A stretch of DNA of 64,000 bases from Massalongia carnosa (taxonomy: Eukaryota), in the NCBI GenBank assembly GCA_965645245.1, contig OZ287080.1, forward strand, positions 1,116,001 through 1,180,000. Direction: 5' to 3'. Made by a program: the position numbers and the translations under genes. Under the pieces are notes generated by a model. The model did not search any database. It was not told where the DNA came from and saw only the letters and a list, made by a program, of their open reading frames with translations. Below, one piece after another: positions 7,449 through 31,050 of the stretch. Position 1 is the stretch's first letter; every line of letters begins with the position of its first letter.

Positions 7449-7510
7449 CTCATTGTGTATAACCTCGAAACTAACACAAGAAAATCACTCGGCAGCACTA
7501 TAGGCTAACC

Positions 7511-7522
7511 GGGCTCATAACC
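7511..7522 (-). other. Primer binding site GGTTATGAGCCC
   Basis: Immediately internal to the 5' LTR; matches the Ty5/copia-type PBS complementary to the anticodon arm of initiator tRNA-Met (from recall). Confidence 0.8.
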
Positions 7523-7854: not shown

Positions 7855-7995
7855 GTTCCCTTTTCGACGCTTTGATTCAATGGAGAAAAGACAGACCGTG
7901 ATCGAGAGCAGATCGTGATATCTTTGTAAACAGAGTTGTGCTCGTTTCGTAATGAATAAACGCTTTCGATGTGATAAAAGGCTTTCCACCTGAAG

Positions 7996-9528: not shown

Positions 9529-9940
9529 CACCTGACGGGTGGTGTGACCATTCCGAATGAATGACCAAAAACGCATGTATTGAAATTCCCCCTGAGATAG
9601 AGCCATAGAGATATATAAGTTATCAATATATAAAGGCTCAGGTACTTTTCAGTGTGTTCTAATTCTTAACGTAAGTGTGCCGAGTAAAAGCTATGTACAT
9701 GTACAGCTCATAGTTTGTTTGAACGCTAGACCTTCCCAGAACTCGGATGAGTTCGGTAGAGGCTGAGACATTGTTGGTGAAACATTTGCCGGGGCCCCAT
9801 CACACGCCTGGTAGGATTCGCCTGGAGGAGCTTGACACTGATCGCTATAAGTGGATTTGGGTTTCCGGAGGGTGGGCACTTTGCATATGTAGCTGGTACT
9901 CAGCACTCAGTAAAAGACTACCGATATCAGAATAATTTCA

Positions 9941-10699: not shown

Positions 10700-10892
10700 T
10701 GCTAGAACATTCGAACTGTCAGATTTCTCTGGTGCCGAAAGATGAGCGCTTTCAAAGCTTCTAGAGTAAACGATAATGACAGTTTAGAAGTGGAAAGAAA
10801 GCGCTTGATGCAAAGGAACGGTTTTAATGTCCGTGGTGAAAAGGGATGCTTGTACGTCTTCAACGTAGTGAAGGCGCTAGAGGCTCCATCTT

Positions 10893-11073
10893 GATGTCGC
10901 CTTCAACAAGTTTGACACGAACTCTGGTTATCAATGAGTGCTCTCTTGTGACAAGCTCGTTTATTGCCTAATGCCTAGATGTCGCCCTTCAACAAGTATG
11001 ACACAAAATACGATGATCTCTATTTATCAATGAGCGCTCTTGCGACAAACTCATTTTGTTGCCTGATGCCTAT
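10893..11073. repeat. Imperfect tandem duplication of a ~85-95 bp unit
   Basis: GATGTCGCC(C)TTCAACAAG...TTATCAATGAG...GACAA...TTGCCT.ATGCCTA occurs from 10893 and from 10978. Confidence 0.75.
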
Positions 11074-11372
11074 ATTGAGAAGGCAAACGCTAATTAGGTA
11101 GTCTAGAGGATTTGAAACACCAACATTATGAACAATCTTATTGATTCTCTTGCACGTGTGATATCAATGATAATCCGTCTTGATATTCTCCTTAAAACGC
11201 AATAAAGAGTAAGCTGCAAAACTGCAAGAGAATAGAAGGTTGTGTTTGGCGAATACGAGGGTGGAATGAGCCGAACTACTATTTTGTAGTCTTATCGATA
11301 AGGCTCGCAATGGCATTCAAGATAAACGTTTGTTCTGCGGATAAGAAACATGAGTCTAAGGAAGACAGCTAT

Positions 11373-13514
11373 CCCTTCGTCTGGCAATTTGGCAGCCTCC
11401 TTAAATAGGCTTAGTGAGATACCGTCGGGCTGAGTCGCGAACTTCAAAACATTCTCCCCTTTTTTTGTAAATAAGAAGGTAAACATCAGTTGAAAATCAT
11501 TAAAACATCTACAATTTCTTTAGAATAATCATGAGAGGCATTAAGATAGAAGTTCCTGACCAATCAGACGCTTTGCCCCCCTCAATTCTGAAAGAACAGG
11601 CCAAAAAGAATAAACCCAGCGTACAAAGCATAATTGACTCCATGCCCCCTCCGTCATCAAATTATTGTCCAATTTCGATCCCATTTCGAAAACCACAGCC
11701 GGACGAGACGTTGCGCTTGATAAATCAGACTCCTTTCAGTTTAGTCTGCCTCTTCTTTAGCTTTGAAATGCTTGAAATCATAGCTAAAAACACCAATCTT
11801 AAAGCGAAAAAGAAGTATGCCCTAAACGACATCAAGAGACGTCAATGGCATGACACCTCTTCTTCTGAAGTAGGAGCTTTTCTGGGAATTCTGTTATATA
11901 TGGGGTATACACTGATGCCACGTCTTACTGACTATTGGAACACGTCTCCTAAATTTGCCATACATGACATGGTGATTCAAGCCATGAGTCTTCGAAGATG
12001 GGAGCAACTCAAGCGATTTTTGAAGATATCCAACCCCGACGAAGATGAGATCATTGATACTCGAGGCCCTGATTGGTGGAAAAAGCTGGAACCATTGGCC
12101 ACAGACTTTCGAAAAGCATCAAAGAAATACTGGATTCCTGGAAGTCATGTGTCAGTTGACGAGCAATTGATTTTATTCAGGGGTAGGAGCTGCCATACTA
12201 TGCAAATAGCCACCAAGGCGGCTGGTGTAGGCTTCAAAATCTATAGTTTATGTCAGGAAAATTATCTTTTTGACTTCTTATTTACCTCCAAGGTGAGTAG
12301 AAAAGGCCTCAATTTGCATCGTACTAATTGCAAGACAGGTGTCCAAAATTAGTGAGTTAAAAACGCCTGGACAATTGAAATTTCCGACAACCAAATGGGA
12401 TTTGTCTCCTTCCTCCCTAGTCGTCATTCAACTGGCTCGAAGTTTACCGTCTGATGAAGGCTTGAAATACGGCATCTTTCTGGACAACTTCTTCACAAAT
12501 ACGAAGCTATTCAAAGCTCTGAAAACCATTGGAATTGGTGCCTGTGGGACGGCTAAATCAGGATGCGGTTTTCCTGTTGATCTTCTACGTCTGAGGGTTG
12601 CAGCCACCAAGAATAAGGACTGGGGAAAGAAGGCATTGATGACGGTACCTGCAAATAAAAGTAAAAAATCAAACATTGATGACGGGGACATTCTGTGTAT
12701 GGCATGGGTGGATTTAAACACCGTGCAATTCATGACCACGGTTCATACAATTGAGGATTTGAAGACTTCTTTCTACAAGAATTCCCGTCGACGTCATGGA
12801 ATTCCTGCAAATTCCAGAGTCATCGTTGATGATGAAGAAGAAAAGCTTCCATTTCCCATGCCCATCGTGGAATATAACCAGCACATGGGCGGGTCAGATG
12901 GGAATGCTCAGCAAAGAGCATATTATTCACCTCAAAGATCTGATCGTCGCTACTGGTGGTCTATTTTCATCTTTCTTCTGGATGCAGCCGTTCTAAATGC
13001 CTTCAAATTGTGGAGAATTCTGTATCCGAATTCAACACTCAGCGATTTGGACTTTCAAAAAGAAATAGTAAATGCCCTACTATCCAATCAAGCCGGTGCC
13101 CTACGGAAACGTCCGACAGATGTCATAGTTACTACTAATCAAGACGTTAGTAAAGACGTCGAGTCAGCTTGCAAATGGGAGCATTTGAATAAGAAGGACT
13201 ATTGTTTGGCCTGCAAAAGGCAAGTGCCAAGACTCAAACGACGCCGACCACTTGCGGAAATTGATGAAAATTGCACCAAAAGACGACGTGCAAGTCAGAC
13301 CAGATGGCAATGTAAGAGCTGTGGACCATGTTGCAAAAAGGAGGCATGTTGGGAAATTTTACATATATCATGAGGGGTGATTGAGGTGTTGTACCCATTA
13401 TCGTTGAAAAGGGAAAATCTGATTGGCCAGATTAAAGTTATTAGTCATTACCCGGAGACGGCGCGTGTAAAATTGAATATTACCTAAATGGCTGCCAAAT
13501 TGCCAGACGAAGGG
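11373..13514 (+). mobile_element. piggyBac-like DNA transposon, copy 1
   Basis: 25-bp TIRs CCCTTCGTCTGGCAATTTGGCAGCC; piggyBac-type transposase; near-identical inverted copy at 28133-30274. Flanks are CTAT/ATAG, not TTAA. Confidence 0.93.
11531..13373 (+). CDS. piggyBac transposase, 598 aa after splicing (exons 11531-12292, 12339-13373)
   Basis: 46-bp GTGAGT...CTAAT...CAG intron joins the two ORFs in frame; SVDEQ, FLDNFF, YNQHMGGSD catalytic motifs; C-terminal Cys-rich domain. Confidence 0.92.
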
Positions 13515-14161
13515 ATAGACAGCACCTGGGTCGAGGCCTTAGCTAGCTCGGTGTTTCAAAGTGACTGGGCAGTAAGATTGCAAAGAGCAAGAAGGCAAAA
13601 AGAAAGATCAGGCTGAAAAGTAAAAGCGGCTGGCACGCGGCAGACCAATAGTAGCTGCTGCAGCTTCCTAACAGTACAAGGTTTGACCGCGTAGATAGAG
13701 CAAGCACATGCTTTAAAGTATTGCTACAAGAGAAAACGAAAGGATAAGAAACATTTCTTGAAGGTAAATCTAAAACATATGGAGGATGTTTATGAGGAGT
13801 AGAGGACGATTATTCAATGGTCAAAAGAATGAAACCATGAGAGGAAGATTGAAGTCTAATCCTAATCGACTCTAGCTACATATGCATGACACACGAGACC
13901 TAGTGTCCAACCCTAATCTAATCTAATGCCATTACCCCACGTTTCTTTGTCAGTCCGAAGTCGGATTCACTCCCATGCTCGACTTATTTTAAATAGCTTC
14001 AACTGGGAACACGAGAGAGGGGGAAACGTTAACAACAGATTCGGCTCAACGAGGAGATCACACCGAAATAAAAGCAGCTCTGCCGTTGCAAGCACCAACC
14101 GAGACGGCCTGAGACATCGACGAGAGCACCGGCCCAACTGGGCACAGCAGCGTGAGTCGCA

Positions 14162-16303
14162 ATGCCTATGTATGTATAATCTAGAACAGCCGCTCACAAT
14201 ATTTTAGCTAACAGCGTATTCGTTCAAGGCTCAAAGATCCCTCGACAAAGTACAAACCCTTCAAGCCACTTGACCTTCCAAACCGCCAATGGCCCTCGCA
14301 GACCATAGTCAAGCCGCCGCGCTGGTTGGCCACAGATCTACGCGACGGCAATCAGTCCTTGGTGGACCCTATGGTGCGTCTTGCCCTTCTTGTGAGATGA
14401 TGATATATGAAGAGCCTGTGCTGGTTTATGGCTATGCTGGCATACTGAGTCCACGGTATGTAGGACTCACATCAGAAATGGCGCTATTTCAAGATGCTGG
14501 TTGAGCTAGGCTACAAAGAGATTGAGGTCTCATTCCCATCGGCTTCAAATACTGACTATGGCTTTACGAGGCGCTTGGTGGAGACTCCAGGCACTGTGCC
14601 AGATGATGTGTGGCTTCAAGTCCTTTCGCCATGTCGACAAGATCTGATCCGAAGAACTGTTGATTCCTTAAAAGGGGCGAAAAAAGCTCTACTCCATCTT
14701 TACCTAGCTACGAGCGAATGCTTCCAGCGTATAGTGTTTGGCTTCACTCGGGAAGAGAGCATTGAACTAGCAGTCAACTGCACCAAATACGCTCGGTCAA
14801 TTACGAAAGATGACCCATCGCAGTCTGCAACGGAGTGGGCCTACGAGTTTTCCCCGGAAACCTTTTCAGATACCTCCCCTGAATTTGTGATTCGCATATG
14901 TGAGGCCGTAAAAGCTGCGTGGGAGCCATCAACCTCGAACCCACTCATATTCAATCTTCCAGCGACTGTCGAAATGTCCACCCCAAACATATACGCCGAT
15001 CAGATCGAGTATTTTTGCCGCAACATGACCGAGCGAGAGAAAATCTGTGTATCTTTGCACCCACATAACGATCGTGGGTGTGCCGTGGCAGCTGCCGAAC
15101 TCGCACAAATGGCCGGCGCCGACCGGGTCGAGGGAACTCTTTTCGGCAACGGCGAGCGAACCGGAAATGTCGATCTCGTTACCCTCGCCCTAAACCTATA
15201 CACCCAAGGCATCCATCCCAAAATTGACTTTTCCGACATCAACCCCGTTATCGATACCGTTGAGCAATGTACCAAGATCCCCGTCCATCCCCGCGCCCCA
15301 TACGGTGGTCAACTCGTCGTTTGCGCCTTCAGTGGTTCCCACCAAGACGCCATCAGAAAGGGGTTTCAGGCGCGGGAATCTGCTGGCGCCACCGACGCCG
15401 ATCGCTGGCAGCTACCCTACTTACCTTTAGACCCTCAGGACATCGGTCGTACTTACGAAGCCATCATCCGTGTAAATTCACAGAGCGGAAAGGGTGGTGT
15501 CGCCTGGATTATCCAGCGCTCCCTCAAACTTGACCTGCCGCGCGGCCTGCAAATCGCCTTCTCCAAAATCGTGAAGAAGCAAGCCGATACTTTAGGCCGA
15601 GAATTACTCCCGCGAGAAATTCAAACCTTATTCGAAGACGCTTATCACTTAAAAACCAACCCGCGCTTCATCCTCGTCGATTATGACATTACAATCGATC
15701 GCTCCGCTAGCCCGCTCCCGCTTGAAAAGGGTCGTGTGCAGAACACCCAGAATCTGAAGCGTAAGTTCGAAGGCGTCATCGCCATCGACGGTGAGGAGCA
15801 TCTAATCAAGGGGTTCGGCAACGGTCCCATCTCGTCCCTTGCAAATGCCCTGCATACCCTCGGCATTGACCTTGACGTTTCCGAGTATAAAGAACATGGC
15901 ATTGGCGGGACGCGCGATGTGAAAGCTGCTACATACATCGAGTGCACCGCTGCAGATAGCAGTCAACGGGTTTGGGGCGTGGGTATTAACGAGGATGTGG
16001 TCCAGGCCAGTTTGATTGCATTGCTATCGGCCGCTTCTTCAGTCAGTATCATCTTCCCTTCTATTCACTTTATGTATCTTCCACTCTTTTGTGTCAAAGT
16101 TAAAGCACGAAAACGACTCACCCACCCCGTTAAAACCCACACAGTTCATATCGAGCCGCCCCAACACGCCAATGCCTTTCCAGCCCAAACGCGTCGATAC
16201 CGCATCCTCAACTGATCTCGCAGCTTTCAACCTCAACGGCAGCCCCAAGCGCGAGCGGACGGAGGTGGTGGCAAGGTTGGAGGCTACGGTGAATGGAGCT
16301 TAG
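14162..16303 (+). CDS. LEU4: 2-isopropylmalate synthase (exons 14162-14169, 14229-14373, 14464-16041, 16145-16303)
   Basis: Spliced N-terminus [14 protein letters not shown]...[49 protein letters not shown] motifs. Confidence 0.96.
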
Positions 16304-19047
16304 CACGCTACTTAGGCTTGGGGCAAGGTTTTCTGGTAGAACTGATCGCTGATTATGTCTAGGGATGCTGGCGAGCATTTGGGTGGTGCCAGGGGGCGGG
16401 AGTTTTATAAGAATGTTTGACGGTTTAGCGCTAGGTGGATAAAAGTTGGAAGTTTGGGTTGAAAGGCGGAGTTCTTGACCTGAGGGGAAAGGGTTGGAAA
16501 AGTTGTATGAGTAGATTCACTCTATCTCTTCCTCTCTCGTTTCCTTACCTGTGCTATGCGGATATCCTGCAATGCTGCGCCAATCCCCGAGCTGGCATAT
16601 TCACCCCCTCCCCCTCCCTTGCTCTTCAGACAGGTCCCCTTTTATAAGCCCAGGAACATACATCATTCATGCTTGCTTACTCCCTTTGCTTGACTACTTT
16701 TCCTCCTTTCTCTCTTCTAGTTAATCACGCCCTACTCACTCACCTTCACGCCGACTCTCATACAGCTTTTAAAATATACTGCTCTACTCCACTCTCTCTC
16801 TAACTAACCTACCCCTCTTCCTGGCCCTTCTTACCCTTAATATCTGAGCCCCCGAAATCAAGTCTTCTACTACCCCACCCCCCCGCTATTCTTCCTTCCA
16901 TATTGGTTGACGGAAAGGTAGTGGTAAATCAAAATTTGCGTACCCGGAGGGGTTTGGTTAGGCCGAGTGAATGATTGCTGTTTGGTGCGGATGGGATGGG
17001 TTGGGTGGATGGATGTGTAGATATGTATGTAGGTACCTTGTTGCTTGTGGATATGGGTTTGATAGGCCCCTCGGATCATGCATTGATTTGGGGGGCTTTG
17101 GATGAATGGAGGCAGACCGGGAGGAAGCGTGGATCTGGAGGGTTCGTTGGTTGTAGGGATCTATTAGAACGGTGAGAATTGGATTTAGGGGGCCCCTGGG
17201 GGGGGGGTTGCGGGGTGGGGAAGGAAGGGGAGAGAATTGAGGGAAGAATATTTTAGTTGGGACGAGTTAGAGGGAGAAGGGGTTGAAAAGGAGAGGGGGG
17301 GGTGGTGAGAGGATTGAAGGGTTGGGAGATGATGGGTTGTTGGTATGTATGTAGTGGGGACACAGTTCTGAGGCTAGTGGGGTGGGATGGACACTTTTCT
17401 TGGAATGTATGAATTCCAAATGTTGATAAGCGGGGGATAGATAATGAAAGAAGTAGAAGCGAAGCAGCTGGAAAGTAAAAAGAATCTCGTGAAACGCTTG
17501 GTCTTTGATTTCTCATATCATCCGCCAGGCCTATATTCTTCCCTTATGGAGCAGACTTTGAAAAGCACAACAGACTTACAGTGTCTGTTAGCCAAAACCG
17601 GGCATTGGAAAAGGATAAAGCACCAGGATGAATATCTAGCTGTTCGGAGTTATTCCCCAGAATTAAGCCTGATAAAATAGCTGGAGAAATAATATCATAA
17701 TCATGTAGTCTCAGCATTGGCCTTCTGAATAAAGGATGAAATAGTGCGATGACAGTTCAGCAGGCTTGGACCGAGCACCTTTTAATGAATGACTACGCTT
17801 ATCTGAAGCCGTGTTGGCGAGGCCTGCATCCTTTTTAACCGGGCTACAGTTCATAAGGTGAAGCATTCTAGCTAGCCAGAGTAAGGAATATATCGAAAGG
17901 TATTACGTTAAAGGCTAGTTGATTCTTCTCCGCTTGTCGCTGCATTTCTCATATGAAGGATCCAGCCTCTATACTGTTAACTCAGTGTTTACAAGGTGAT
18001 TTTTTGGGGTCTTCCAGTGCATCATATCCAAATAGTCACATAATGATTATAGTCAATATTCATAGCCACCAAATATAATCTCTGCGGCTAAAATAAGGAA
18101 TGATGCCAAATATTCTTTCAAAGCCAAGCGGCGGGTGTCTCTTTGCTTTATATGAACGTAACGAAATGGAGCTTCGTTGAAACCTCTCTATGGTAGAAGA
18201 CGATATTATATCACTTACCTAGCTGATGTGGTTTCTTCTAGCCATGGAGAATGCAATATAAAATCTCCTCTCATAATACCAACATGCAGAATTCACCGAA
18301 GCTGCATTGTAAAGAAATCAAGCACGATGTATTGCATACAGGCTCTATTCTAGGTTTTCTATGCCACTTGAAGCATTGATACTCCTTGGAGAGCGGTGGA
18401 TTTCCACTAGCTGGGTTAATATTTGGAGCCTGAGGATACGCGTAACTTCAGCAATTCCTTCTGACGGCTAGCCCCTATTTCCAACAGCACCTCGCTAGTT
18501 TGATACTATCCACTGGTTGGGGGGAAAACGGAAAGGTATCATTGCCCGTAATCATCCGTGGTAGAAATCCTAGGCTGTTAACTTCAGGGCCTAGCCAAAA
18601 CAAGGCTATGAGGGAATGGAGAGGAGGTAAATGAAACCGTAACAGTATCTGTATGAGTTTTGCCAACAAAGATAGAAACTGCAAATGGACAGAAGAGTGG
18701 ATAGATATATCGTACCCACCTCAAGAAATAGGTAAATGATATGGCTAAAAGGTTTATGGATCGCAATTGTCGCTCTTTTCGCGTTTCTCACACGCTATTC
18801 ATCCTTTAAGGTCAACACTACCTATTCGTGCCAGTTGTGCTAGGTCCAGGAGTTTAGAGTGACATTAAGTGTCTAGAGTAAGCGCGAAGTTTGCCTCAGT
18901 ACCTCAGACCTGCCTTGCCCTCGCCACTAGGGCTCTGAAAATTTCGAAATTTTGACAAGGTCGCACGAAAATTTCATCACGTGTGCGCGCCAAGCATGAA
19001 ATTTTCGAAATTTATTACTAAGCACATATACATATCTTGTAGATAGA

Positions 19048-19729
19048 TTGCCTCAGTACCTCAGACGTGCCCGGCTAAGCCCCTTCGGGTTAGCCTTACA
19101 GAACGTTAAGCCCCTTCGGGTTAACAGGCTGACTACGCAGCACATCTGTAGCAAGTCTGAGCCCAAAACTCAAGATTACGGTCAGATATGGCTTAACGAT
19201 CATGACAAGAACGATTTCGACCTTATAGAACAACGTCACAACTTCATTGTTTTCATGTTTGTAACGTCGTCGTCGCTTGATATGATCATGATCAATGTAT
19301 TTTTGATTTTTTCGTTATAAATTTCAATCTTTATTTATGTTTATAACGTGCAGAGCAATTTTACATACATCTTGTTATTTTCGTTAAGTCGATTCTTGAT
19401 TTCTATGCGAAGTGCAATCAGATTGCCCCACATGAACTTTACAACGAACAGGAATTTCAGGAAACTTTCTATACAAATTCTACTTGAATTCTTTCGAAGA
19501 AATAGCCCGTGTCAAGCAAAAAAGCAAGACGTCAAAATGTCGAAAAATCGCTATAATACAGGCTTTATTACGAATATCTGACCGTAATATTTAGTTTTGC
19601 GCTCAGACGTGCTATCGCAGCCACGTTAGTCAGCTGGGACGCTAATCCGAAGGAGCTTAGCGAAATAGGCTAACCCGGAGGGGCTTAGACGGCTCCTAGA
19701 GCCCACGCACGTCTGAGGTACTGAGGCAA
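19048..19729. mobile_element. 682-bp non-autonomous MITE of the AcademH-like family, nested in the hAT
   Basis: 23-bp perfect TIRs TTGCCTCAGTACCTCAGACGTGC plus longer imperfect subterminal IRs; 8-bp TSD TAGATAGA (19040-19047, 19730-19737). Confidence 0.93.
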
Positions 19730-19798
19730 TAGATAGATCGATACCTCAATTTGATAGTCACTCTCATACATTTAAAGGTATCTTCCTATTTTATACTC

Positions 19799-21742
19799 AT
19801 GGCTCAACGCGGTGGAAGAAAGAAAAATTCTCTAATTGAGGAGAATTTCAAAGACGTGATCACCATGGGATCGAAAAAACCTCAGCATCAATGCATTCAT
19901 TGTGGTCATCAGACAACCAAGAATGCTGTAAGAGGACTATCACATTTAGATCAATGTGATGCCTACAAACAGAAGATAACAAAGAAGGAAGATGCCTCGT
20001 TCAGTTCTAGATCAATCCCACTGCCCATTACCACCATGATTCGTCCCCTTAGCCAGAGTCAAATTGCTCATGCTCATCGCGAGGCGGCGATGTCTGTTTA
20101 TATGACAAATCTTCCCTTCAACCACTTCGAGAATCCCTATGTTATTGCGGCATTTCAAGCTCTTTCTCCTGGATACAAGCCCCCTCATGCCAGACTGATG
20201 GCTGGACGATTGTTGGATGAAGCCTATGAGACAGTTAAATTCAAAATAAATCAAGAATTGAATGCTTGCAATCATCTCAGCTTTTTTACCGACGAGACAG
20301 CCAACATTCGAAAAGAGCGAGTAATAAATCTCTGCTGTCACGTTCCCACATCTGTCACTTCTAGTGGCGGAGGATTTCTGCTAAAAGCTGATGTCGGAGT
20401 GGCGGAAAAAATGACGGCAGTCGTACAAGCTGAATGGGTGATAAATGGATGTAGGGATGCTACCAACAATCAGCTTGAAAGGGTTAATTGTATCTGCACC
20501 GACACGTGCTCTACAATGAAAGCCATGTGGACGGAAATTTCGAAAAGTGCAGAGATGAAGCATGTTTTCTTCGTACCTTGCGATAGTCATGGTTTGCAGC
20601 TATTGTTAGGAGACATTTTGAAATTTCCTTATTTTACAGATGTTATAGAAAAGGCTCAGTTGATCGTCATCAGTTTTCGCGGATCAAATAAGGAATTAGC
20701 CAGTTTATGGAAATACCAAATGAAGGCATACAAACAGCGTCGTTCCTTGGTTCTCAACGTTCTCACCAGATGGGGTACGACGGTTGGTCTTTTAAATTCA
20801 GTACTGAATAATCAACAGGCCTTGTTGGATTATTTTCAGCAGAAGAATCCAGCCATAGATCAGGGAAGAAATAAACCTTTGGGAAGTTTCGTCAACGATT
20901 ATTCCTTTTGGAAGAAACTGACCATGGTCAAAAAGATACTGAATCCCATTCATAAACTTCAGTACATGTCCGAAGCCGAGGGATATAAGCTATACACCGT
21001 AACAAATAACTGGAATATCATTCGCTCTCATCTGTACTCGATGGCCGAAGAAGAAAGCGACAGTGAGGCGGATCTATATCACATTGCTCACGTCGTTTGG
21101 GAAGATAGATATCTCAGTCAAATAACAGAGCTTCATGTGGTTGCATCTCTTCTGCTTCCGCAAAATCGTACGATAAAGGTGGTCGGAGTTACTACAGAAC
21201 ATGCTTTTTCATCGATCATGCATAGATTCTTTGCTCGATATCTGAATGCTGAAGATAGCATCGTTGCCATGAGACAATGGCTTGCTTTTCGAGATCAGGA
21301 AGATGGATTTCATGCAAACTCAGAATGTTGGACTTATCAGATGACACCGGAGCTGTTTTGGAATTTTTGCAAGCATTTTGCATTGATTCTTAGCAAGCTG
21401 GCCAGAAAGGTAATGATGCTTCCTGGCAATTCAGTGCTGGCAGAAAGAAGTTGGTCGGTCATGAATTTGATCATGAACAAGACTCGAAATTCCATGGCAT
21501 CGATCAACGTGGATAAGCTGATGTTTATTTATCTGAATGAAAGAACTCTTAACCGACCGAAAGAAATCAAAAGGAAGCTACAATTCGCAGGCATTGACAT
21601 AGAAGAAGACGATCTATGTGAGATGGAAGACAGATTGTTGCAGGAAGAAATCTCTCTGCAAGAAACAGCGACAGTAAAATCGTTGAAACGACCAGCAAGT
21701 CAAGCGATAGAGGGAGATGCGGTCAGGCTCAGAGATACTTGA
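19799..21742 (+). CDS. hAT transposase (647 aa), intact ORF
   Basis: BED-like finger CIHC...HLDQC; TDETAN, CTDT, PCDSH, TRW and AERSWS motifs. Confidence 0.93.
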   Translation: MAQRGGRKKNSLIEENFKDVITMGSKKPQHQCIHCGHQTTKNAVRGLSHLDQCDAYKQKITKKEDASFSSRSIPLPITTMIRPLSQSQIAHAHREAAMSVYMTNLPFNHFENPYVIAAFQALSPGYKPPHARLMAGRLLDEAYETVKFKINQELNACNHLSFFTDETANIRKERVINLCCHVPTSVTSSGGGFLLKADVGVAEKMTAVVQAEWVINGCRDATNNQLERVNCICTDTCSTMKAMWTEISKSAEMKHVFFVPCDSHGLQLLLGDILKFPYFTDVIEKAQLIVISFRGSNKELASLWKYQMKAYKQRRSLVLNVLTRWGTTVGLLNSVLNNQQALLDYFQQKNPAIDQGRNKPLGSFVNDYSFWKKLTMVKKILNPIHKLQYMSEAEGYKLYTVTNNWNIIRSHLYSMAEEESDSEADLYHIAHVVWEDRYLSQITELHVVASLLLPQNRTIKVVGVTTEHAFSSIMHRFFARYLNAEDSIVAMRQWLAFRDQEDGFHANSECWTYQMTPELFWNFCKHFALILSKLARKVMMLPGNSVLAERSWSVMNLIMNKTRNSMASINVDKLMFIYLNERTLNRPKEIKRKLQFAGIDIEEDDLCEMEDRLLQEEISLQETATVKSLKRPASQAIEGDAVRLRDT

Positions 21743-22506
21743 GATTGTATGAAGATTAATAGCTAAATCAAGTATCTTCAAGTTGGCATGTCCTCGTTCC
21801 TATTTTCCGCTTTCCCCGCACCCCCCCCCCTGCCTACCCCCCCCCCTGCCTACCCCCCTGCAAAACATCCATGAAAATTTCACTCGTGAAAGTCGCAGTG
21901 AAACTTTCATCCCGATCGGGTTAGGCAAAATTTCATGAAAGTTTCATTTCAGAGCCCTACTCGCCACAGCTAAGCCTTTTCGGATTAGTATATAATTAGT
22001 CAGAAGCTAAGTCAATTTAGTTAAATGTTTAACTGTTTTAGGATAAGATTCTATTTAGCTTACTACGCATGCTTCGGGCGGCAGGTCAGGTTCTCGTTAT
22101 TTTGGTGACAACACACGTAAGTTTAGCGCTTAAGACTTAAAATCATCGTTTTTCACGTTTAAGACAAGATCAACGACAACGCATGAAAGTTGTATGTAAT
22201 ATAATACATTATTGTCGTCGCTACTTAAAGATATGCTTTATTAAATGATCTAAAATTTAAACATCCTGCGTGCGTTGCGCAGTTATCTTCATCATCGAGC
22301 AACATCGACTCAAACTGACTCTCAAATCTCGACGACAGCACAACAACTTCGAATTGAGTCTTGCTCTTCAATTCAACGATCGGCGCTCATATTCATCATA
22401 TTGCCTTGGCGGATCATGTTATCGTAGTTCTTCAGGACTTCAAACTCAAAAATATAGTCGTCGTCCTTGCTAGCGTGCTTTCTTGTTGTAGCGATATTAC
22501 ATCAAT

Positions 22507-22880
22507 ATGAGTGACGCGATACAGATGTTGACTTGTGAGAAGATCGAGAGCGTTGTTGATCAATATTTCGGATTTCGTCCAAAGAGGGAGCAGGTGGATG
22601 CGCTTCATCATCTGTTGTGTGATAGGATGGATTTGATCTTGATAGCAAAAACAGGTTTCGGAAAGAGCATACTGTTTCAAGCTGCTTCTTTGATGTTTTC
22701 GCGTTGCAAGTCAGTGTTGATAATCATGCCTTTGATTGCACTGGAAGAGGAGCAATGTGAAAAAACCCTCTTCAAACGCCTCGTCGACCTTCACCGGAGT
22801 TAACGTCTATCGCCTCAAAGGAGCTGCCCGATTCTCGCTAGGGGCGAAAAAGAAGGCGACCAGCTTACCTGGATGAGTGA
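22507..22880 (+). pseudogene. RecQ-like helicase remnant with a large internal deletion
   Basis: N-terminus FGFRPKREQV...AKTGFGKS...IMPLIALEEEQ is homologous to 58765 onward; fused near 22765 to a basic tail (GRKRRRPAYLDE*) resembling the end of the longer copy. Confidence 0.85.
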
Positions 22881-22943
22881 TGGCGGACAGCAAAGCCGCG
22901 CGGCGCGGATTTGCTCCTCCGGTGAGCGATGAATAGAACGGGT

Positions 22944-25629
22944 TTGATCAACAAACATACCGCCTGAGGGTTCCAGCGTACTTGCTGGAAGGGTGGGGCT
23001 TTCAGGTGCTTCACTGGTTTCGTTTGTAGGCGCGAGTCCAAGTTCAACATCCTTTTCATGATCGTCAAGGGGTACCGTTTCACTTATGTAATGTCGATTG
23101 TACTTCATCGAGCTCTCACCCAAGCGAGCGAGGCCTTCCATATAAAGGTTAACTGTCTGATTCATCGAAAATCGATCCCCATTGACCTCAACGAGCGACT
23201 TAGAGGCCAGTTGCAAAGCCATACTCCATATGTCCTCGGCGGCGGATTTTGAAGAATTAGCCCTTCCGAACGTAAATTCGACCGCGGCTTTAACTTCCAG
23301 TAAATAAGGCCCGTTCATTGCCCAGTCTTCCAGTAACTTATCGCTATTCTTCGAAAAATAAGATCGTTCTCGCTGAAATGTCTTAAGATTATTGTTTAAT
23401 AATTCCAAAAGCCGATCGGTTTCAAAATTTGAATCCTCGTTGCCTCGTAGATTGACTAAACTGTTAGCCAAAATTGCATCTTGCAGCTCCAGGGTCGCAG
23501 CTGGTGAATCGGTCATGTGAAGAACCCGTAGCAACGCCTGCGCGTAATTGGGAGTTCCAGCCGACTCTGCTTGAAACATCATCGTCACCTGACGCAGGGC
23601 CCGTCGAAGCAGTCCAATATCCGCATGTTTGATGGCATATCGAAGAGTCAAATACAGTTCCACATGGGCGCAAAAATTCTGATGATTACGAAATTCTTGA
23701 TCGAGCGCTGGCGGTTCGGCATCAGCTGTCGTCGACGGAGGCGGCGCGTGGATTTGTTCATTTATTCGACTCAGGGCATTCATCCATGACCTTGACACGC
23801 TGAAACACTGTGCCTCAAACCAAGCTATAGTATCTTCAATTCGTGTGAATGAACATATCTCACGTCGGGCGAGCCGAATCCACGTGCCAACGATGCGAGC
23901 TTGATAACTGTGAATGATCAAATCCTCCAGCGCCTGAAAGTCGTTTGGTTGGACTACCCGAGAACGGTCCCATCGATCGGCGGCGTACTGAAGTGTGGAG
24001 GGGTCGGCAGGTCGGGCCTGACCCCAATGTATGCTATGGATAAGCTGAAGCATATTATAGCGAAGATGCCAAAGGCCGATGCTCGGCAGCAACCAGTCAA
24101 ACCGATCGAAAGCCCGCGCAGAGATGTCCCGACGAAGCGCTTTGACAACCTCGATACGCTTCCACGTCTTGAGGTCGCCATAAATGAGCCGGATAACTGA
24201 ATCAAAGGCGGGATCGCTATCTTTCATCTCAAATTGCCTGCCGTAAAGATGCTCTAAAATATGCAGATTGTTCGTTGTTGTGCTTTCGTCTTTCATAATC
24301 GGCTTCAACGGATGATACTTCGTTCGAAGACAGTCCAGCCTTTTCAGCACAGGCATGGATGTAACCCGAGGAAATTTGAAGTCGCTGAATTTAGCGTTGT
24401 AAAGGGCTTGAATTGCCGACTCAATATGATGAATTTGAATCTTGATTCACATTTCATCAGTTTCAAGTAAACAGTTTGAAAGAATGGTCGATGCTTACCT
24501 GCGCATCTATGTCGTCTGGTTTTAATCTTAATGCGAGTTCCATGGCGGACAAAGGATAATTATCAGGTTGCCACATATCCTGTCTCAAGGTCGTTGCCCC
24601 AAGGCCCTGTCCTTCAAACATTAAGGCGGTCGTAATTGATCGAAACTCTCTTACGTCACCGATTCTCTCGCCTCTTCGACCTTCCGCATAATCAAAATTA
24701 TCATAGGTTACAACTGTAGTTGAAGCCCGCCCTATCGTCCTTACCTTTCGCGCCGCTTCGTCGCTTAAGGTTGACATGCGCCGTTGAAGGGTGGGTTACG
24801 ACATTGTCAAGCCAAGTTGACATAAAGTATCCAGAACCCTGCGCCTGGCGCCACCCTGATAGATATAAAGACCCATGATGCTCTGAAAGTTTGTTGACGT
24901 ATTGGGGCGCAACATGTGACAAAGAAGGGACAGTATAGTCAACTGCCGTCCGGCCGGAATAGCGCGCTGAGAATAAATGGACTCGTCTCGGTGAACATCG
25001 CAACAGGCGCGCTGAATGAGATCTAGCCATCGTGGCGCCTTACTCGTGATAACCGCCGCGGCGCCCTTGAAGCTATTTAAGGTGCCCAGCTCGTCGGTCT
25101 CCGAATGCGGGTGAAAAACCCCAAAGGCGGCCGTAGCAATCAGTGCATTAAGCTCCGCTCGAAGGGCCTGCACGACCCAAGTCCAACCCTGTTCATGAAG
25201 AATGACTGCTGCTCGATCCTTCCCAATAAGCTCACCTAGTCCTTCGTCTTTCATCATTTGAACATAGGCGAAATCCATAAATTGAGCCTGTCCAGCCCGC
25301 ATGCGGTGACGCCCTCGATATTTTAGCAATGTAGAGAGAAAATCCTTGATTGTCCATTTCAGGTTACGAATATGCTCCATCAACTCAAGAAGTTTACCCC
25401 AATCATCCAAACGACGTCGTGATCGTCCTCGTCGTTTTCGGCGTTCCTTAGATCGCCTTGAGGACGACGAACGGAGGAAGGAATCAGAATAATCATGACC
25501 GCTGGAAGTTGATTGAGGGCGCCTTAAAGGAGTTTGGCTTTCTGGCAGTGAAGGGGTTGAAACTCTCGAGGTCAGGGGACTTGTCAACAGGTCAGGGGGC
25601 GAGGAGGCGCTGGCTTCGGGTGAGGCCAT
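22944..25629 (-). pseudogene. Transposase-like gene of AcademH-like copy 1
   Basis: Colinear with 61002-63680 (TYDNFD, YGDLKT, GLWHL, FETDRLLE); in-frame TAA at 24796-24798; intron near 24440-24500; CAA where the other copy has its stop. Confidence 0.85.
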
Positions 25630-25862
25630 GATGTTTTTTTTTGCGCAGGGATCGCTCGATGAAGGCAAACTTCTGTGGACAGGGTGACCTTTCCTTTGTT
25701 TACATACCTATCTACTCCGTACAACTGCAGGGTATAGCCATGTAAGTTTATGCCGCGCTAGGTCGAATCCGCGCGGCGCGGCTTTAAGTTCACCATTAAC
25801 ACAAGAGACTAGCTCAAAAACAGGCACGCTAACTAAACAGGCTTGACGCAGGCATCGACTGC

Positions 25863-27314
25863 TTAATTATTTACGAAAAAACTATCCTCTCCAAACATCA
25901 ATCTCTCCGCCATTTTCACTCTTCCATACGCGGCCTTGAAACTGCGCAAAGCGTTCAACCTATGGTTCTGTATCGCCTCTTGCTAACTTGCGATCTTCTC
26001 CCAGTATTACGTTTGCCTGCGCTTGAACGACAGGGTCCTCCCAGCTTGTCCGACAGACGAGCGCGTGACTGATAGGAGAATCAAGCCAGAGCTGAGTGGA
26101 TGGTGGAAACTTATGGGATAGGCCCAAATCGATTCGCGAGTCCTGAAGGAGTGACTCTGGGTGCTGTTTGACTAGCATGCGCCCTTGCGAGGTCACTCCA
26201 TTTATCGGACTCGACATTGTCCAGCGTCTCGCCGTCTTCTTGCACGCCGACGTACCAAGGCAGAACCGTCCGACGCGGGCCGTTTCCTTTGTTTGGAGTC
26301 GAACCATGAAGGATTTCTCGCTTCGTGACTCTTACGTCTCCTCTTTTGCAGGGAACAGGAATAAAGTCTCCAAACTGAGCGGCATCCTCTTTGATCCATA
26401 TTTTTTCAAGGCCATGTACGTGTCCATCCGGGACCTCTCCACGAGCGCACATGTTATTCCACCACTGGGCAATGTGTAGATGAAAACCAGGGACTATTTT
26501 AGTGCACCCCTCGGCGGTCTCATCATCAAGCGACACCGAACCTTGAATGATGTTGCCCCCATGACCATTATCCAGATATTTTGGTACGTTAATATCAATA
26601 TGGCGAAAAATAGTTGGATCTCCCTCCCGTGTATACTTCGCGTAATACGGATATGCTACCAATCGAATATTGCGATCGGGACGGAGGCACGCGTACAGTG
26701 CCCAGTATTCGATGTCTTGACGGATCAACTGTTGGGTTAAAGAGTAATACATAGTTCGTAACCATCCACGATTTGACTGACCATTCCTCTCCCGCTGATG
26801 CCACTGATAGATGTCGAACTCTTCGAGTATCAGATCTCCGATTCCGGTCTCTACTTCGTCTTTGGATTTTATCCCTTTCCACAACCAATCAAACATGTCT
26901 TTAACAATTAGATTTTCATCTTTCATCCAGAGATCCCAAGCGAACTCTCCTCCAATCTCGTCGACTATGATTTTAGCTTGCTCCTCATTGAGCCCTCTTA
27001 TCAGAGATGATCTCGTTGCTCGTTTGTAATAGACGCCAAGAGCATCATCATCAACCCTCGGTCTAGCACATAAATGAAACCAGAAGCTTGTCTCCCGTCC
27101 TGTTTTCAGATCATCGAGGTTGGAACGATGATGATGACAAGACTTGAGCCTCTGCCTTAACTCTTCTGCATTTAAATTATTGACTTGAAGACCGAAATGA
27201 CCGCCTATCTATAGCTAGAAGATGACGATAGCAGACGTGAGTAAACTCCTCTCCGTGGATAAATGCAGACATTATTTTTCTAATAGTGCCTAGATACTCT
27301 GCGTCACCTTTCAT
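25863..27314 (-). pseudogene. 2OG-Fe(II) dioxygenase-like (PhyH-like) cargo gene, frameshifted and 5'-truncated
   Basis: FRHIDIN (HxD), IQGSVSLDD, CTKIVPGFH, GDVRV...ILHGST (distal His) and a downstream Arg; reading continues across frameshifts near 27208, 26110 and 25975 to ...FGEDSFFVNN*. Confidence 0.72.
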
Positions 27315-27357
27315 TCCTGCCGCTGAGGCAGTCTTTTACAATCCGGCCTTCCTTTGA

Positions 27358-27600
27358 AGAATTAAGTGTGAAGGATTTAGCTTCAAGATAGACTACAAAG
27401 CCGAGGTCCAGCTCCCGGCTGGCGATCCAGAAGACCCGACAGATTTTTCAGGTTCTAGCGAACGCGGCAAAGCTGCAAAAACCTCCAAGGACATCAAGAC
27501 CCCGAAGGCCGCCAAAATCAAAAGCGCCAAATCCAACCTTGGACCGGTAGAGGCGGCCAATAAATCAGCGAAAAAGGCAGCCAAGGGAAGAAAGAGGTAG
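27358..27600 (+). pseudogene. Start-less Lys/Ala-rich C-terminal fragment of a possible fourth element gene
   Basis: 80 open codons ending ...SAKKAAKGRKR*, followed 20 bp later by the element's GC hairpin. Confidence 0.4.
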
Positions 27601-28132
27601 AGACCACATGTCATGTGGCAAATCCGCGCAGCGCGGCTTTGCCGTGGATAGTCTAGCTATAGAGATGCACTAGCTAATTATGAATCAATGACCGACTGCA
27701 ACCGACTTTCTCTTACTATTCTCGTGACCCAAATCGATGTCCATTGTACACAGTAGACTGAGACCCGGGCTTTTTGTCCAGCTTGCATCGAGTTTAAAAA
27801 GCATGCTCGCCATCCCTTGATGTCGTTCTTTAGTGCACATATTCGACCGCGCGGTTCCAAAACATAAAAATAACACATATAAAAAACGGCGGTATGGTAT
27901 AACATGATATTTTACGCTCAATCGGGGAAGAACGCTCGATAGTAAGCACAGCGAACTTAGTAAACAAGGCTAACTTTAAAGGGTTAGGCACATAGTCTAA
28001 ATAAGTTAGCGCCGAGCTAACCGAAAGAGGTTAGTGCAGGTGAAGGCTGTGCCACAACACGTCTGAGGTACTGAGGCAACGCGAAGTCTGACATTTGGAA
28101 ACTTCTGGACCTCGGCAACTTCGCATCTCTAT

Positions 28133-30274
28133 CCCTTCGTCTGGCAATTTGGCAGCCATTTAGGTAATATTCAATTTTACACGCGCCGTCTCCGGGTAAT
28201 GACTAATAACTTTAATCTGGCCAATCAGATTTTCCCTTTTCAACGATAATAGGTACAACACCTCAATCACCCCTCATGATCTATGTAAAATTTCCCAACA
28301 TGCCTCCTTTTTGCAACATGGTCCACAGCTCTTACATTGCCATCTGGTCTGACTTGCACGTCGTCTTTTGGTGCAATTTTCATCAATTTCCGCAAGTGGT
28401 CGGCGTCGTTTGAGTCTTGGCACTTGCCTTTTGCAGGCCAAACAATAGTCCTTCTTATTCAAATGCTCCCATTTGCAAGCTGACTCGACGTCTTTACTAA
28501 CGTCTTGATTAGTAGTAACTATGACATCTGTCGGACGTTTCCGTAGGGCACCGGCTTGATTGGATAGTAGGGCATTTACTATTTCTTTTTGAAAGTCCAA
28601 ATCGCTGAGTGTTGAATTCGGATACAGAATTCTCCACAATTTGAAGGCATTTAGAACGGCTGCATCCAGAAGAAAGATGAAAATTGACCACCAGTAGAGA
28701 CGATCAGATCTTTGAGGTGAATAATATGCTCTTTGCTGAGCATTCCCATCTGACCCGCCCATGTGCTGGTTATATTCCACGATGGGCATGGGAAATGGAA
28801 GCTTTTCTTCTTCATCATCAACGATGACTCTGGAATTTGCAGGAATTCCATGACGTCGACGGGAATTCTTGTAGAAAGAAGTCTTCAAATCCTCAATTGT
28901 ATGAACCGTGGTCATGAATTGCACGGTGTTTAAATCCACCCATGCCATACACAGAATGTCCCCGTCATCAATGTTTGATTTTTTACTTTTATTTGCAGGT
29001 ACCGTCATCAATGCCTTCTTTCCCCAGTCCTTATTCTTGGTGGCTGCAACCCTCAGACGTAGAAGATCAACAGGAAAACCGCATCCTGATTTAGCCGTCC
29101 CACAGGCACCAATTCCAATGGTTTTCAGAGCTTTGAATAGCTTCGTATTTGTGAAGAAGTTGTCCAGAAAGATGCCGTATTTCAAGCCTTCATCAGACGG
29201 TAAACTTCGAGCCAGTTGAATGACGACTAGGGAGGAAGGAGACAAATCCCATTTGGTTGTCGGAAATTTCAATTGTCCAGGCGTTTTTAACTCACTAATT
29301 TTGGACACCTGTCTTGCAATTAGTACGATGCAAATTGAGGCCTTTTCTACTCACCTTGGAGGTAAATAAGAAGTCAAAAAGATAATTTTCCTGACATAAA
29401 CTATAGATTTTGAAGCCTACACCAGCCGCCTTGGTGGCTATTTGCATAGTATGGCAGCTCCTACCCCTGAATAAAATCAATTGCTCGTCAACTGACACAT
29501 GACTTCCAGGAATCCAGTATTTCTTTGATGCTTTTCGAAAGTCTGTGGCCAATGGTTCCAGCTTTTTCCACCAATCAGGGCCTCGAGTATCAATGATCTC
29601 ATCTTCGTCGGGGTTGGATATCTTCAAAAATCGCTTGAGTTGCTCCCATCTTCGAAGACTCATGGCTTGAATCACCATGTCATGTATGGCAAATTTAGGA
29701 GACGTGTTCCAATAGTCAGTAAGACGTGGCATCAGTGTATACCCCATATATAACAGAATTCCCAGAAAAGCTCCTACTTCAGAAGAAGAGGTGTCATGCC
29801 ATTGACGTCTCTTGATGTCGTTTAGGGCATACTTCTTTTTCGCTTTAAGATTGGTGTTTTTAGCTATGATTTCAAGCATTTCAAAGCTAAAGAAGAGGCA
29901 GACTAAACTGAAAGGAGTCTGATTTATCAAGCGCAACGTCTCGTCCGGCTGTGGTTTTCGAAATGGGATCGAAATTGGACAATAATTTGATGACGGAGGG
30001 GGCATGGAGTCAATTATGCTTTGTACGCTGGGTTTATTCTTTTTGGCCTGTTCTTTCAGAATTGAGGGGGGCAAAGCGTCTGATTGGTCAGGAACTTCTA
30101 TCTTAATGCCTCTCATGATTATTCTAAAGAAATTGTAGATGTTTTAATGATTTTCAACTGATGTTTACCTTCTTATTTACAAAAAAAGGGGAGAATGTTT
30201 TGAAGTTCGCGACTCAGCCCTACGGTATCTCATTAAGCCTATTTAAGGTGGCTGCCAAATTGCCAGACGAAGGG
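28133..30274 (-). mobile_element. piggyBac-like DNA transposon, copy 2 (inverted)
   Basis: Same TIRs and length as copy 1; about 7 substitutions seen by eye; flanks CTAT/ATAT. Confidence 0.93.
28274..30116 (-). CDS. piggyBac transposase (exons 30116-29355, 29308-28274)
   Basis: Two amino-acid differences from copy 1 (SDRR/SDRL, ILHIS/ILHRS); same intron. Confidence 0.92.
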
Positions 30275-31050
30275 ATATTCTATGACCCTTATCGGTGCCG
30301 TTACCTTCGCTTGCGCTGGGGGGGCTTTTAATTGGATGAATTGATTTGAATGCTTGAATTTGATTGGGCATGGGAACGACACAGGTCAGCCCGGGCAGGC
30401 CTAGGCACGTGACTCGGGGTCGGTGCTGAGGTGAGAACCTCATCTTCTAGGCCCGAGGCGTCTGCTGACGCTCAACGATCCGATAGATGATGCCCGACGG
30501 CAGTGCCCGACGGCGATGATCTAGATGGAGGTGCCCGGCGGCGCTCCGGATCGATGCCCTGGTTGACCTGTACGCCCATCGCTCACTTAAGGTGGCTTCT
30601 AACTAGCTATGAATCTCGGGTGGCCGAGGGTGGGGAAAAGCAGCAAGCACTGACAGCGAGGTAGGGGCACCGAGACAACGTGGGGTCGACGACGAGTCAG
30701 TGAGATGGATGAGGCCGAGTGAGAAGAAGTGGATGAGGAAAGAATTTTCAGAGGGTGATTCTTAATTTACTTTGACTCAGGGGCCTCACGTGACATAGAA
30801 CCATCTCATCTATGACCCTTATCGGTGCCGTTACCTTCGCTTGCGCTGGGGGGGCTTTTAATTGGATGAATTGATTTGAATGCTTGAATTTGATTGGGCA
30901 TGGGAACGACACAGGTCAGCCCGGGCAGGCCTAGGCACGTGACTCGGGGTCGGTGCTGAGGTGAGAACCTCATCTTCTAGGCCCGAGGCGTCTGCTGACG
31001 CTCAACGATCCGATAGATGATGCCCGACGGCAGTGCCCGACGGCGATGAT

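Follow-up and report, generated by a model that had tools for sequence, protein, structure and literature searches.

The nested elements at 18891-28079

The 64,000-nucleotide stretch of the Massalongia carnosa genome analysed here (contig OZ287080.1, positions 1,116,001 to 1,180,000; hereafter the window) contains, between positions 18891 and 28079, a DNA transposon in which the remains of a RecQ-like helicase gene and a putative transposase gene of the DUF6589 family are accompanied by a gene for an Fe(II)/2-oxoglutarate (2OG) dioxygenase. The element ends in two 22-nt terminal inverted repeats (TIRs) that begin TTGCCTCAG and are 95% complementary; an inverted-repeat search placed the left one, TTGCCTCAGTACCTCAGACCTG, at 18891-18912 on the plus strand and its complement at 28058-28079 on the minus strand. 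A perfect 8-bp target-site duplication (TSD), CGCGAAGT, adjoins the TIRs at 18883-18890 and 28080-28087 and cannot be extended. The window contains five copies of the 19-nt TIR core, where chance would give 0.01. These boundaries bear out an original prediction, made from the sequence alone, that the interval is a TIR- and TSD-bounded transposon of the helicase plus large-protein type. That prediction was also right about the RecQ remnant, the transposase-like gene and the dioxygenase gene, and overlooked the two further elements that lie inside.

Three elements, one inside the next, make up the interval. Inserted 35 bp inside the left end of the outer element, and no part of that element proper, is a complete hAT transposon (18926-21959, plus strand). 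It has 13-nt TIRs (TAGGGCTCTGAAA and TTTCAGAGCCCTA), its own 8-bp TSD (CTCGCCAC, at 18918-18925 and 21960-21967) and an open reading frame (ORF) of 669 amino acids (aa) at 19733-21742 that matches hAT transposases in Pfam (DUF659, 4.2e-11; Dimer_Tnp_hAT, 1.9e-8), and so possesses the transposase domains, the short TIRs and the TSD length that define the hAT superfamily. Within the hAT, in turn, lies a 682-bp miniature inverted-repeat transposable element (MITE) of the outer TIR family (19048-19729, plus strand), whose TSD (TAGATAGA, at 19040-19047 and 19730-19737) is 8 bp long; to count 9, the two TIRs would have to begin at different bases. Once the hAT is excised, the sequence continues directly from 18925 into the outer element's left subterminal region and the region upstream of the helicase gene (21968-22455, plus strand), and the outer element measures ~6.1 kb. 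Elsewhere in the window, at 58151, a second element of the TTGCCTCAG family is inserted in the left end (58088-58150) of another copy of the nested hAT's family; with a hAT in one TTGCCTCAG element and a TTGCCTCAG element in the end of another hAT, each family has therefore inserted into the other.

Given a hAT transposase ORF inside the interval and an outer TSD of 8 bp, which is a hallmark of that superfamily, it might be argued that the outer element is itself a hAT whose transposase (19799-21742) mobilises captured helicase, DUF6589 and dioxygenase genes. We find this scarcely credible, since the hAT has its own TIRs and its own TSD, and since at 58151 and in two metagenome loci described below (L002 and L001) TTGCCTCAG TIRs adjoin the helicase and DUF6589 genes, or the dioxygenase gene, and no hAT gene accompanies them. 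Moreover, when the contigs of four public runs were compared with positions 17000-30500 of the window, a contig of run X1 was found to pass from the outer TIR directly into position 21960; copies of the outer element that lack the hAT therefore exist.

In the outer element, the gene for the RecQ-like superfamily 2 (SF2) helicase is reduced to an N-terminal fragment (22456-22764, plus strand) that encodes the first ~103-111 of ~750 residues, in the DEAD domain; the remainder is deleted. In other copies the helicase gene continues, as is shown by a loose contig end at 22764 (run X1). The DUF6589 gene follows at 22815-25707 on the minus strand (Pfam, 2.7e-65). It contains one in-frame stop near 24796 (TMS*PTL) and one frame change at 24446-24493, which is also present in L002 and may be an intron. 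Its protein is the element's only candidate for a transposase, and a putative one.

The dioxygenase gene, which the original prediction placed at 25863-27314 on the minus strand, was traced by tblastn with homologues from 27335 to 25875 on that strand. What survives encodes the C-terminal ~490 residues of a PhyH-clan Fe(II)/2OG dioxygenase and is broken by three frame changes, near 27210, 26115 and 25978; the N-terminal ~370 residues are lost and the HxD...H...R set of active-site residues is kept. The central ORF of 365 aa (26111-27208) matches Pfam PhyH (PF05721) with 35.0 bits against a cutoff of 22 (E 2.3e-8), and it includes the strands FRHIDIN, IQGSVSL, IVPGFH and ILHGS on which the gene had first been recognised. 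Beyond it lies the 3′ remnant of a fourth element gene, which we call orfX (27358-27600, plus strand), detected by a pairwise match (E 2e-4) to residues 361-383 of the orfX of L002. A GC-rich palindrome, AATCCGCGCGGCGCGGCTTT, stands between the dioxygenase and DUF6589 genes at 25766-25785.

The element at 18891-28079 belongs to a family of cut-and-paste DNA transposons and is dead, with internal deletions; the prediction's word for it, decayed, was apt: the helicase is a stub of ~103-111 residues, the DUF6589 gene has a stop, and the dioxygenase gene has lost its start and its frame. Alignment with L002 shows that a single internal deletion of ~3 kb took the 5′ part of orfX together with the first ~370 dioxygenase codons. 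The copy has undergone two internal deletions, one removing most of the helicase gene and the other the 5′ parts of orfX and the dioxygenase gene; the insertion of the hAT (with the MITE inside it) and point and indel damage came after the deletions. Shorter derivatives belong to the same family. The subterminal repeats GCTAAGCC..TTCGGGTTAG are common to the left end of the outer element, the MITE and the element at 58151, and the public-run contigs include MITE-like internal-deletion derivatives, for example one with the joint 22073->27942. MITE derivatives of the TTGCCTCAG family seem to be very abundant in run X3, where their summed contig depth is 170,000-278,000 against a flank of 821 and many distinct internal-deletion joints are represented.

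The dioxygenase gene as a component of the element lineage

The element at 58151 (58151-64000, plus strand) begins with a left TIR of the same family, is cut off by the end of the window and represents a subfamily that has diverged. It shares ~66% DNA identity and ~63% protein identity with the first element. Its RecQ-like helicase gene is full (58690-60942, plus strand; DEAD and Helicase_C domains), the best sequence matches of the protein in the PDB being WRN (3.7e-5), RECQ4, RECQ5 and BLM; convergent with it lies an intact, uninterrupted DUF6589 gene of 898 aa (61002-63698, minus strand; Pfam, 3e-62).

Relatives of the dioxygenase were sought more widely. A word-index search returned 96 homologues, the named sources of which are Caloplaca, Pseudocyphellaria (three genes), Lichina, Blastenia, Geoglossum, Pseudogymnoascus and Monilinia, all of them Ascomycota and most of them lichen-forming fungi or Leotiomycetes. 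One homologue (P0026) is a second copy of the window gene, 94% identical over the part aligned by tblastn, on another contig of 2.26 Mb. A scan of metagenome contigs with the dioxygenase yielded 62 loci. In the two closest, L001 and L002, the dioxygenase has ~63-65% protein identity to that of the window, and both have an end of the TIR family upstream. L002 carries the exact 19-nt TIR core at 5939, followed by orfX (6563-8113, minus strand), an uninterrupted dioxygenase ORF of 879 aa (9053-11692) and, on the same strand as the latter, a DUF6589 gene (11742-14586), after which the contig ends; the gene order is collinear with that of the window copy. L001 has a TIR variant at ~2541, then orfX (3423-4502, minus strand) and the dioxygenase gene, with a Helitron directly after. 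The flanks of L001, L002 and the window do not align with one another.

The two loci also clarify the smaller features of the element. In both, orfX is divergent from the dioxygenase gene and encodes a conserved domain of ~200 aa (53% identity between L001 and L002) with lysine-rich and acidic tails; a Pfam search with orfX returned no family. The palindrome, 20 nt long (AAnCCGCGCGGCGCGGnTTT), has seven matches over the two strands, against 0.01 expected. Its further copies in the window lie at 22892-22912, 27620-27640 and 60949-60969, and it stands at the same gene boundaries in both window elements and in L002 (6411, 11745 and 14590); in L001 it is found 3′ of the dioxygenase gene (7476 and 7547). 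The palindrome could serve to terminate transcription in both directions or be bound by a protein. The full-length form of the transposon, best seen in L002 and the window's second copy, comprises the DUF6589 gene, a convergent RecQ-like helicase gene, a dioxygenase gene of ~860 codons and a small, divergent orfX.

One objection to a dioxygenase gene in a transposon is that it was captured once, or is there by chance: a host gene of the PhyH family that came to lie between the TIRs of a single copy. The second element lends this some substance. In L002 and in the window's first element, 50-170 bp separate the end of the dioxygenase gene from the DUF6589 gene downstream of it, and we found no dioxygenase C-terminus in the 300 bp between the second element's DUF6589 gene and the end of the window; not every subfamily therefore has the gene at that place, and the dioxygenase gene is lineage-specific within this transposon family. 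In the same direction, an end of the TTGCCTCAG type is lacking in 59 of the 62 metagenome loci within the available sequence (an exact 17-nt TIR core was not found in 61 of them, L001 having the variant), and neither tblastn nor the DUF6589 hidden Markov model (HMM) detected DUF6589 alongside the dioxygenase in any of the 62 except L002. Against these points stand two relatives, diverged to ~63-65% protein identity, that keep the order of genes behind the same TIR family, one of them with DUF6589; the shared palindrome at the gene boundaries; and the collinearity of the window copy with L002, which extends to the remnant of orfX.

The contigs of the public runs speak against a single capture as well. 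Summed contig depth over the dioxygenase bins was 249-297 in run X1, where the single-copy flank stood at 26, and 5,036-7,835 in run X3, where the flank stood at 821; such sums are not copy numbers, and they suggest that the dioxygenase region of the outer element is present in several copies. The high-depth contigs are ~99% identical to the window and lack 1, 1 and 4 nt at 25948, 26115 and 27205, respectively. These positions are at or next to the three frameshifts, so the breaks look private to the window copy, and the contigs suggest that several near-identical copies are free of them.

The pattern of substitution points the same way. The dioxygenases of the window, L001 and L002 form one clade in the tree (support 100/99). 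Among them, the proportion of nonsynonymous differences (pN) is 0.17-0.26 and that of synonymous differences (pS) is 0.81-0.87, which is saturated; for DUF6589 the corresponding values are 0.24-0.28 and 0.75-0.84. Judged by these proportions, the dioxygenase gene is constrained similarly to the putative transposase gene. Capture of a host gene by one copy is thus largely refuted and, in our estimation, very improbable. This element lineage keeps the dioxygenase gene as a stable component under selection, and the homologues of the gene are multicopy and linked to transposable elements and do not have the character of single-copy, syntenic host genes.

The enzyme and its carriers

Full-length members of the family, of ~860 aa in this lineage, begin with an N-terminal domain, followed by an acidic linker, the conserved CxC...CxxH motif and a double-stranded beta-helix of the PhyH clan. 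In an alignment of 35 sequences that includes the window ORF, H336, D338 and R445 do not vary, and at least 90% of the sequences have H434. The HxD...H...R pattern recurs in 133 of 149 family sequences, and the CxC...(25-70)...CxxH motif lies upstream of the core in 75 of the 87 that are long enough to contain it. The Pfam PhyH match is weak or absent in many relatives (8/52 long representatives). The N-terminal parts of the same 52 representatives matched no family in a Pfam scan; they fall into a few conserved groups, one of which accounts for 33 of the 54 examined. A word search with the N-terminal domain found one homologue, and the Atlas gave generic PhyH clusters below 0.9.

An AlphaFold2 (AF2) model was made of P0002, a homologue 65% identical to the window ORF, with a predicted local distance difference test score (pLDDT) of 85.9 and a predicted template modelling score (pTM) of 0.77; its first 74 residues are disordered. 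Foldseek matched the model to the PhyH-clan double-stranded beta-helix (E ~1e-7), and VIA-align, which is independent of Foldseek, concurred, placing the DUF1479 protein YbiU first (Z 20.2) and Candida Gig2 second (Z 19.1), with ~280 residues aligned. Next came the ectoine hydroxylase EctD (Z 15.6) and EvdO1, AsqJ, KanJ and similar enzymes (Z ~15); PhyH-clan enzymes in general lay at Z ~14-16 (human PHYH, 14.3), prolyl hydroxylases at ~10-11, OGFOD1/Tpa1 at ~10, NgTET1 at 8.8 and ALKBH3 and ALKBH6 at ~8.5. The window ORFs have no match to Pfam Tet_JBP at E<=0.01. The enzyme is therefore predicted, as the original prediction required, to be a double-stranded beta-helix protein, of the PhyH clan and not of the TET/JBP, AlkB or JmjC kind; with TET/JBP it would have only the superfold in common. 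YbiU (4rgk, 7twe) and Gig2 (6akz) are the best structural matches and share the HxD...H...R residues; their sequence identity is only 12-16%, and the transposon-borne proteins differ from DUF1479 and PhyH proteins in adding an N-terminal extension of 300-500 aa, the CxC...CxxH motif and a C-terminal helical tail.

The family is large. A profile search of 1.84 billion representatives returned 2,182 clusters at 50% identity with E<=1e-3, and 575 with E<=1e-30; many of the clusters are 750-1,000 aa long, the dioxygenase forming the C-terminal ~480 residues. It is also carried by elements of other kinds. In five metagenome loci (L005, L026, L013, L023 and L034) a Ty3/Gypsy pol gene on the same strand precedes the dioxygenase ORF, which is the 3′-most ORF of this lineage. 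Pairs of long terminal repeats (LTRs) enclose gag-pol and the dioxygenase in L005 (1289 and 11654, 100% identical over the part seen; dioxygenase ORF3 at 8638-11595), L026 (1504 and 11479) and L013 (538-894 and 11181-11537); L023 is a wrap-around contig, and the contig of L034, with pol directly upstream, is too short to show LTRs. L005 and L026 align at 81% from LTR to LTR and not beyond. The five pol genes are related at 46-72% identity, and the association with the dioxygenase is therefore old within that Gypsy lineage. Nearly all differences between the LTRs of L013 are C/T and G/A transitions; they resemble the products of repeat-induced point mutation (RIP) and, as a sequence signature, would suggest an ascomycete host.

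Two further loci are TIR elements of other types. That of L017 (6.4 kb; 72-nt TIRs; TSD GAAGA) contains an rva_4 integrase-type ORF and a 952-aa dioxygenase ORF, and that of L022 (5.2 kb; 70-nt TIRs; TSD ATTAGG) contains a 1,082-aa dioxygenase ORF. Both motifs are kept in all five of the intact element-borne ORFs checked. The dioxygenase family is thus carried by Ty3/Gypsy LTR retrotransposons and by at least two kinds of TIR transposon besides the one in the window, and the independent partnership of transposon and dioxygenase that had been proposed for the window element is both real and wider than envisaged. In L014 (12550-16944, minus strand), L015 (10990-14495) and L036 (3897-5249) a large gene for an SF2/SNF2-type helicase, that of L014 with an OrsD zinc-finger domain, is convergent with the dioxygenase gene and directly 3′ of it; these may be further helicase-encoding carriers. 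L006 (644-4480) and L011 (3275-7138) have related ORFs of ~1,280 aa (24% identity), with no Pfam family, upstream of their dioxygenase genes, which may be transposases of an unfamiliar type. Neither for these helicase genes and ORFs nor for the Plavaka genes of L009 was a boundary found that they share with the dioxygenase gene, and we do not count them as belonging to one element with it.

The structural matches raise the alternative that the enzyme is cargo of benefit to the host, a metabolic or small-molecule oxygenase that mobile elements have captured repeatedly because it is useful or easily captured. Among solved structures the closest are oxygenases of small molecules and DUF1479 proteins of unknown function, most PhyH-clan enzymes act on small molecules, and one gene fragment (L035) lies among ordinary host genes. 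Everywhere sampled, however, the protein has the architecture typical of the mobile elements, with a long N-terminus, an acidic stretch and, as given above, CxC...CxxH; its position in the Gypsy lineage has stayed constant while pol diverged to 46% identity; and, as far as the 55 neighbouring ORFs scanned show, none of the family members lies in a biosynthetic cluster. We consider such cargo improbable.

Taken as a whole, we think it probable that the window element belongs to a family of TIR transposons with DUF6589, RecQ-like helicase, dioxygenase and orfX genes, and that its enzyme family is shared by diverse mobile elements. A number of observations weigh against this account, beginning with the second element and the solitary DUF6589 locus mentioned above. 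A carrier could be defined in only 10 of the 62 metagenome loci (L001, L002, L005, L013, L017, L022, L023, L026, L034 and, doubtfully, L024, whose apparent TIRs are G/C-rich and whose TSD is ambiguous); 25 of the 62 are shorter than 5 kb, ~11 are short, decayed fragments, and the fragment of L035 is flanked by host genes. Saturation of synonymous sites defeats the NG86 and YN00 estimators of the ratio of nonsynonymous to synonymous substitution rates (dN/dS), which is why only pN and pS are reported, and depths summed over contigs measure abundance loosely. The fold was predicted for P0002 rather than for the broken window gene, and the nearest solved folds are oxygenases of small molecules or of unknown function, not demethylases of nucleic acids or histones. 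The assignment of DUF6589 to the DDE/RNase H transposases drew no support: Pfam labels the family as of unknown function, its profile had no match among PDB sequences at E<=10, and an AF2 model from a nine-row alignment reached a pLDDT of only 34 and was left out of the fold searches. A search of the ESM Atlas with DUF6589 returned nothing but DUF6589 clusters, and a word-index search for homologues, swamped by low-complexity words, gave four matches.

Known systems and the possible role of the enzyme

The original prediction called the element AcademH-like. DUF6589 entered Pfam only after 2017, and it may be identical with the Academ transposase. That transposase had no Pfam match in 2017 (PMC5751038), and the strings YDNFD and GDLKT are absent from the supplement of that paper, which consists of an HMM and not of sequences; the supplements of PMC10799480 have no entry for DUF6589, PF20231, Academ or PF05721. 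In the passages that describe them, AcademH elements are Academ elements with a helicase, present at low copy in Basidiomycota, Ascomycota and Mucoromycota (PMC10799480), with a TSD of 9-10 bp, as against 3-4 bp in AcademX (PMC10045372, citing Kojima 2020). The window element resembles them, so described, in being a TIR-bounded, cut-and-paste fungal element with a large transposase-like protein and a RecQ-related SF2 helicase, and in the low copy number and non-autonomous derivatives reported for them. It differs in its TSD, which is 8 bp in both complete insertions instead of 9-10 bp (PMC10045372), and in its additional dioxygenase and orfX genes, neither of which is mentioned in the AcademH passages of PMC10799480 and PMC10045372. 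The RecQ-related helicase and the TIRs are thus those of an AcademH element and the TSD is not, no link between DUF6589 and the Academ transposase emerged, and the AcademH label expresses an unproven membership and a resemblance only.

Transposon-borne TET/JBP enzymes are the textbook case of mobile elements armed against epigenetic silencing. According to Kojima 2025 (PMC12730594), TET/JBP genes are found in about a dozen lineages of DNA transposons, including Kyakuja/Dileera/Zisupton, hAT, Harbinger, IS3EU, EnSpm, ESTA, Plavaka and Helitron. Like those described there, the present family is an Fe(II)/2OG dioxygenase kept as an accessory gene by heterogeneous lineages of fungal transposons, with signs of exchange between lineages; for TET/JBP the role proposed is escape from silencing (PMC12730594). 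The two differ in clan, the present enzyme being PhyH/DUF1479-like (Z ~20 to YbiU, 8.8 to NgTET1), and in their carriers, which here include LTR retrotransposons, the named hosts being Ascomycota. The words 'Academ', 'PhyH' and 'phytanoyl' do not occur in PMC12730594. A 2OG oxygenase has been acquired by Ty3/Gypsy retrotransposons in orchids as well, where it is an AlkB-type m6A RNA demethylase domain (PMC9289625); that case involves a plant, the AlkB clan and a domain, whereas here the hosts are fungi, the clan is PhyH and the enzyme is encoded by a separate ORF of ~950-1,100 aa located 3′ of pol. The orchid AlkB was the only 2OG oxygenase in a retrotransposon that we found in the literature searched. 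On PhyH-type dioxygenases in transposons that literature held nothing relevant; subscription journals and Repbase Reports lay outside its coverage, and an earlier description there is possible. Within the literature searched, then, which treated AcademH through citing passages and did not extend to Repbase Reports, the PhyH-type enzyme family of fungal mobile elements is undescribed.

What might the enzyme do for its carriers? The presence of the same family in LTR retrotransposons and in other TIR transposons makes a role in the conflict between element and host the best working hypothesis, and because RNA-based (class I) and DNA-based (class II) elements alike keep a copy whose catalytic motifs are intact, the enzyme most likely serves the element against a host control that they share. 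We regard it as a serious possibility, though one that falls just short of probable, that the dioxygenase oxidises a macromolecular mark; within that estimate, a residue of chromatin or of another protein seems a somewhat unlikely target and a modified DNA or RNA base a slightly less likely one. Action on nucleic acid or chromatin is something we infer from genomic context, the fold itself being nearest to DUF1479, YbiU and Gig2. A small-molecule substrate also strikes us as rather unlikely.

The same degree of doubt attaches to action on proteins of the element or host that transposition needs. The enzyme could, on this alternative, serve the mechanics of transposition directly, for example by hydroxylating element proteins or a host factor of repair or translation. 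Many 2OG oxygenases hydroxylate proteins, prolyl hydroxylases and OGFOD1/Tpa1 match the model at Z ~10, and the dioxygenase gene is packed tightly with the transposase gene, 50-170 bp away. LTR and cut-and-paste elements, on the other hand, have almost no mechanistic proteins in common, so that a target is hard to name, and MITEs and deletion derivatives that lack the gene are abundant, which means that it is not needed in cis. We accordingly rate a mechanical role as unlikely and return to the conflict with host control. Its broadest version, which we advance tentatively and with more doubt than belief, is that this very large PhyH-clan family, with its ~900 residues, CxC...CxxH motif and N-terminal domain, may be a general enzyme of the fungal mobilome, exchanged among LTR, AcademH-like, integrase-type and other TIR elements and kept for oxidatively erasing or blocking a silencing mark that the host places on chromatin, DNA or RNA.

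Were that so, the TET/JBP strategy would have been invented a second time, independently, in this family, and for the first time in a form common to class I and class II elements; if a macromolecular mark is the target, the enzyme would be the functional counterpart of transposon-borne TET/JBP drawn from a different 2OG clan. The pattern itself, TET/JBP-like but in another clan, is seen in Ascomycota, lichen fungi among them, and in retrotransposons as well as DNA transposons. An enzyme that acts on a silencing mark would point to an unrecognised modification or pathway in fungal genome defence, and it would be an enzyme whose substrate ordinary biochemistry can seek. Even leaving function aside, more than 2,000 clusters of 'hypothetical proteins' acquire a name and a context, the dioxygenase becomes a marker gene for annotating several lineages of mobile elements, and the full architecture, of four genes, is defined for a family of DUF6589/RecQ transposons whose TSD is 8 bp.

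The surroundings of the element are those of a eukaryotic region rich in transposable elements, with copia and gypsy polyproteins, two piggyBac copies and a few host genes. The piggyBac-type elements (28130-30277 and 11369-13519) each encode DDE_Tnp_1_7 in two frames and have identical 29-nt TIRs; the former is separated from the right-hand TSD of the outer element by 42 bp, and contig depth over it in run X3 is roughly 200-300 times that of the flank. Finally, two long tracts, G-rich and C-rich, are imperfect inverted repeats of each other; one (17198-17234) lies outside the element and the other (21810-21846) in the 3′ end of the nested hAT.

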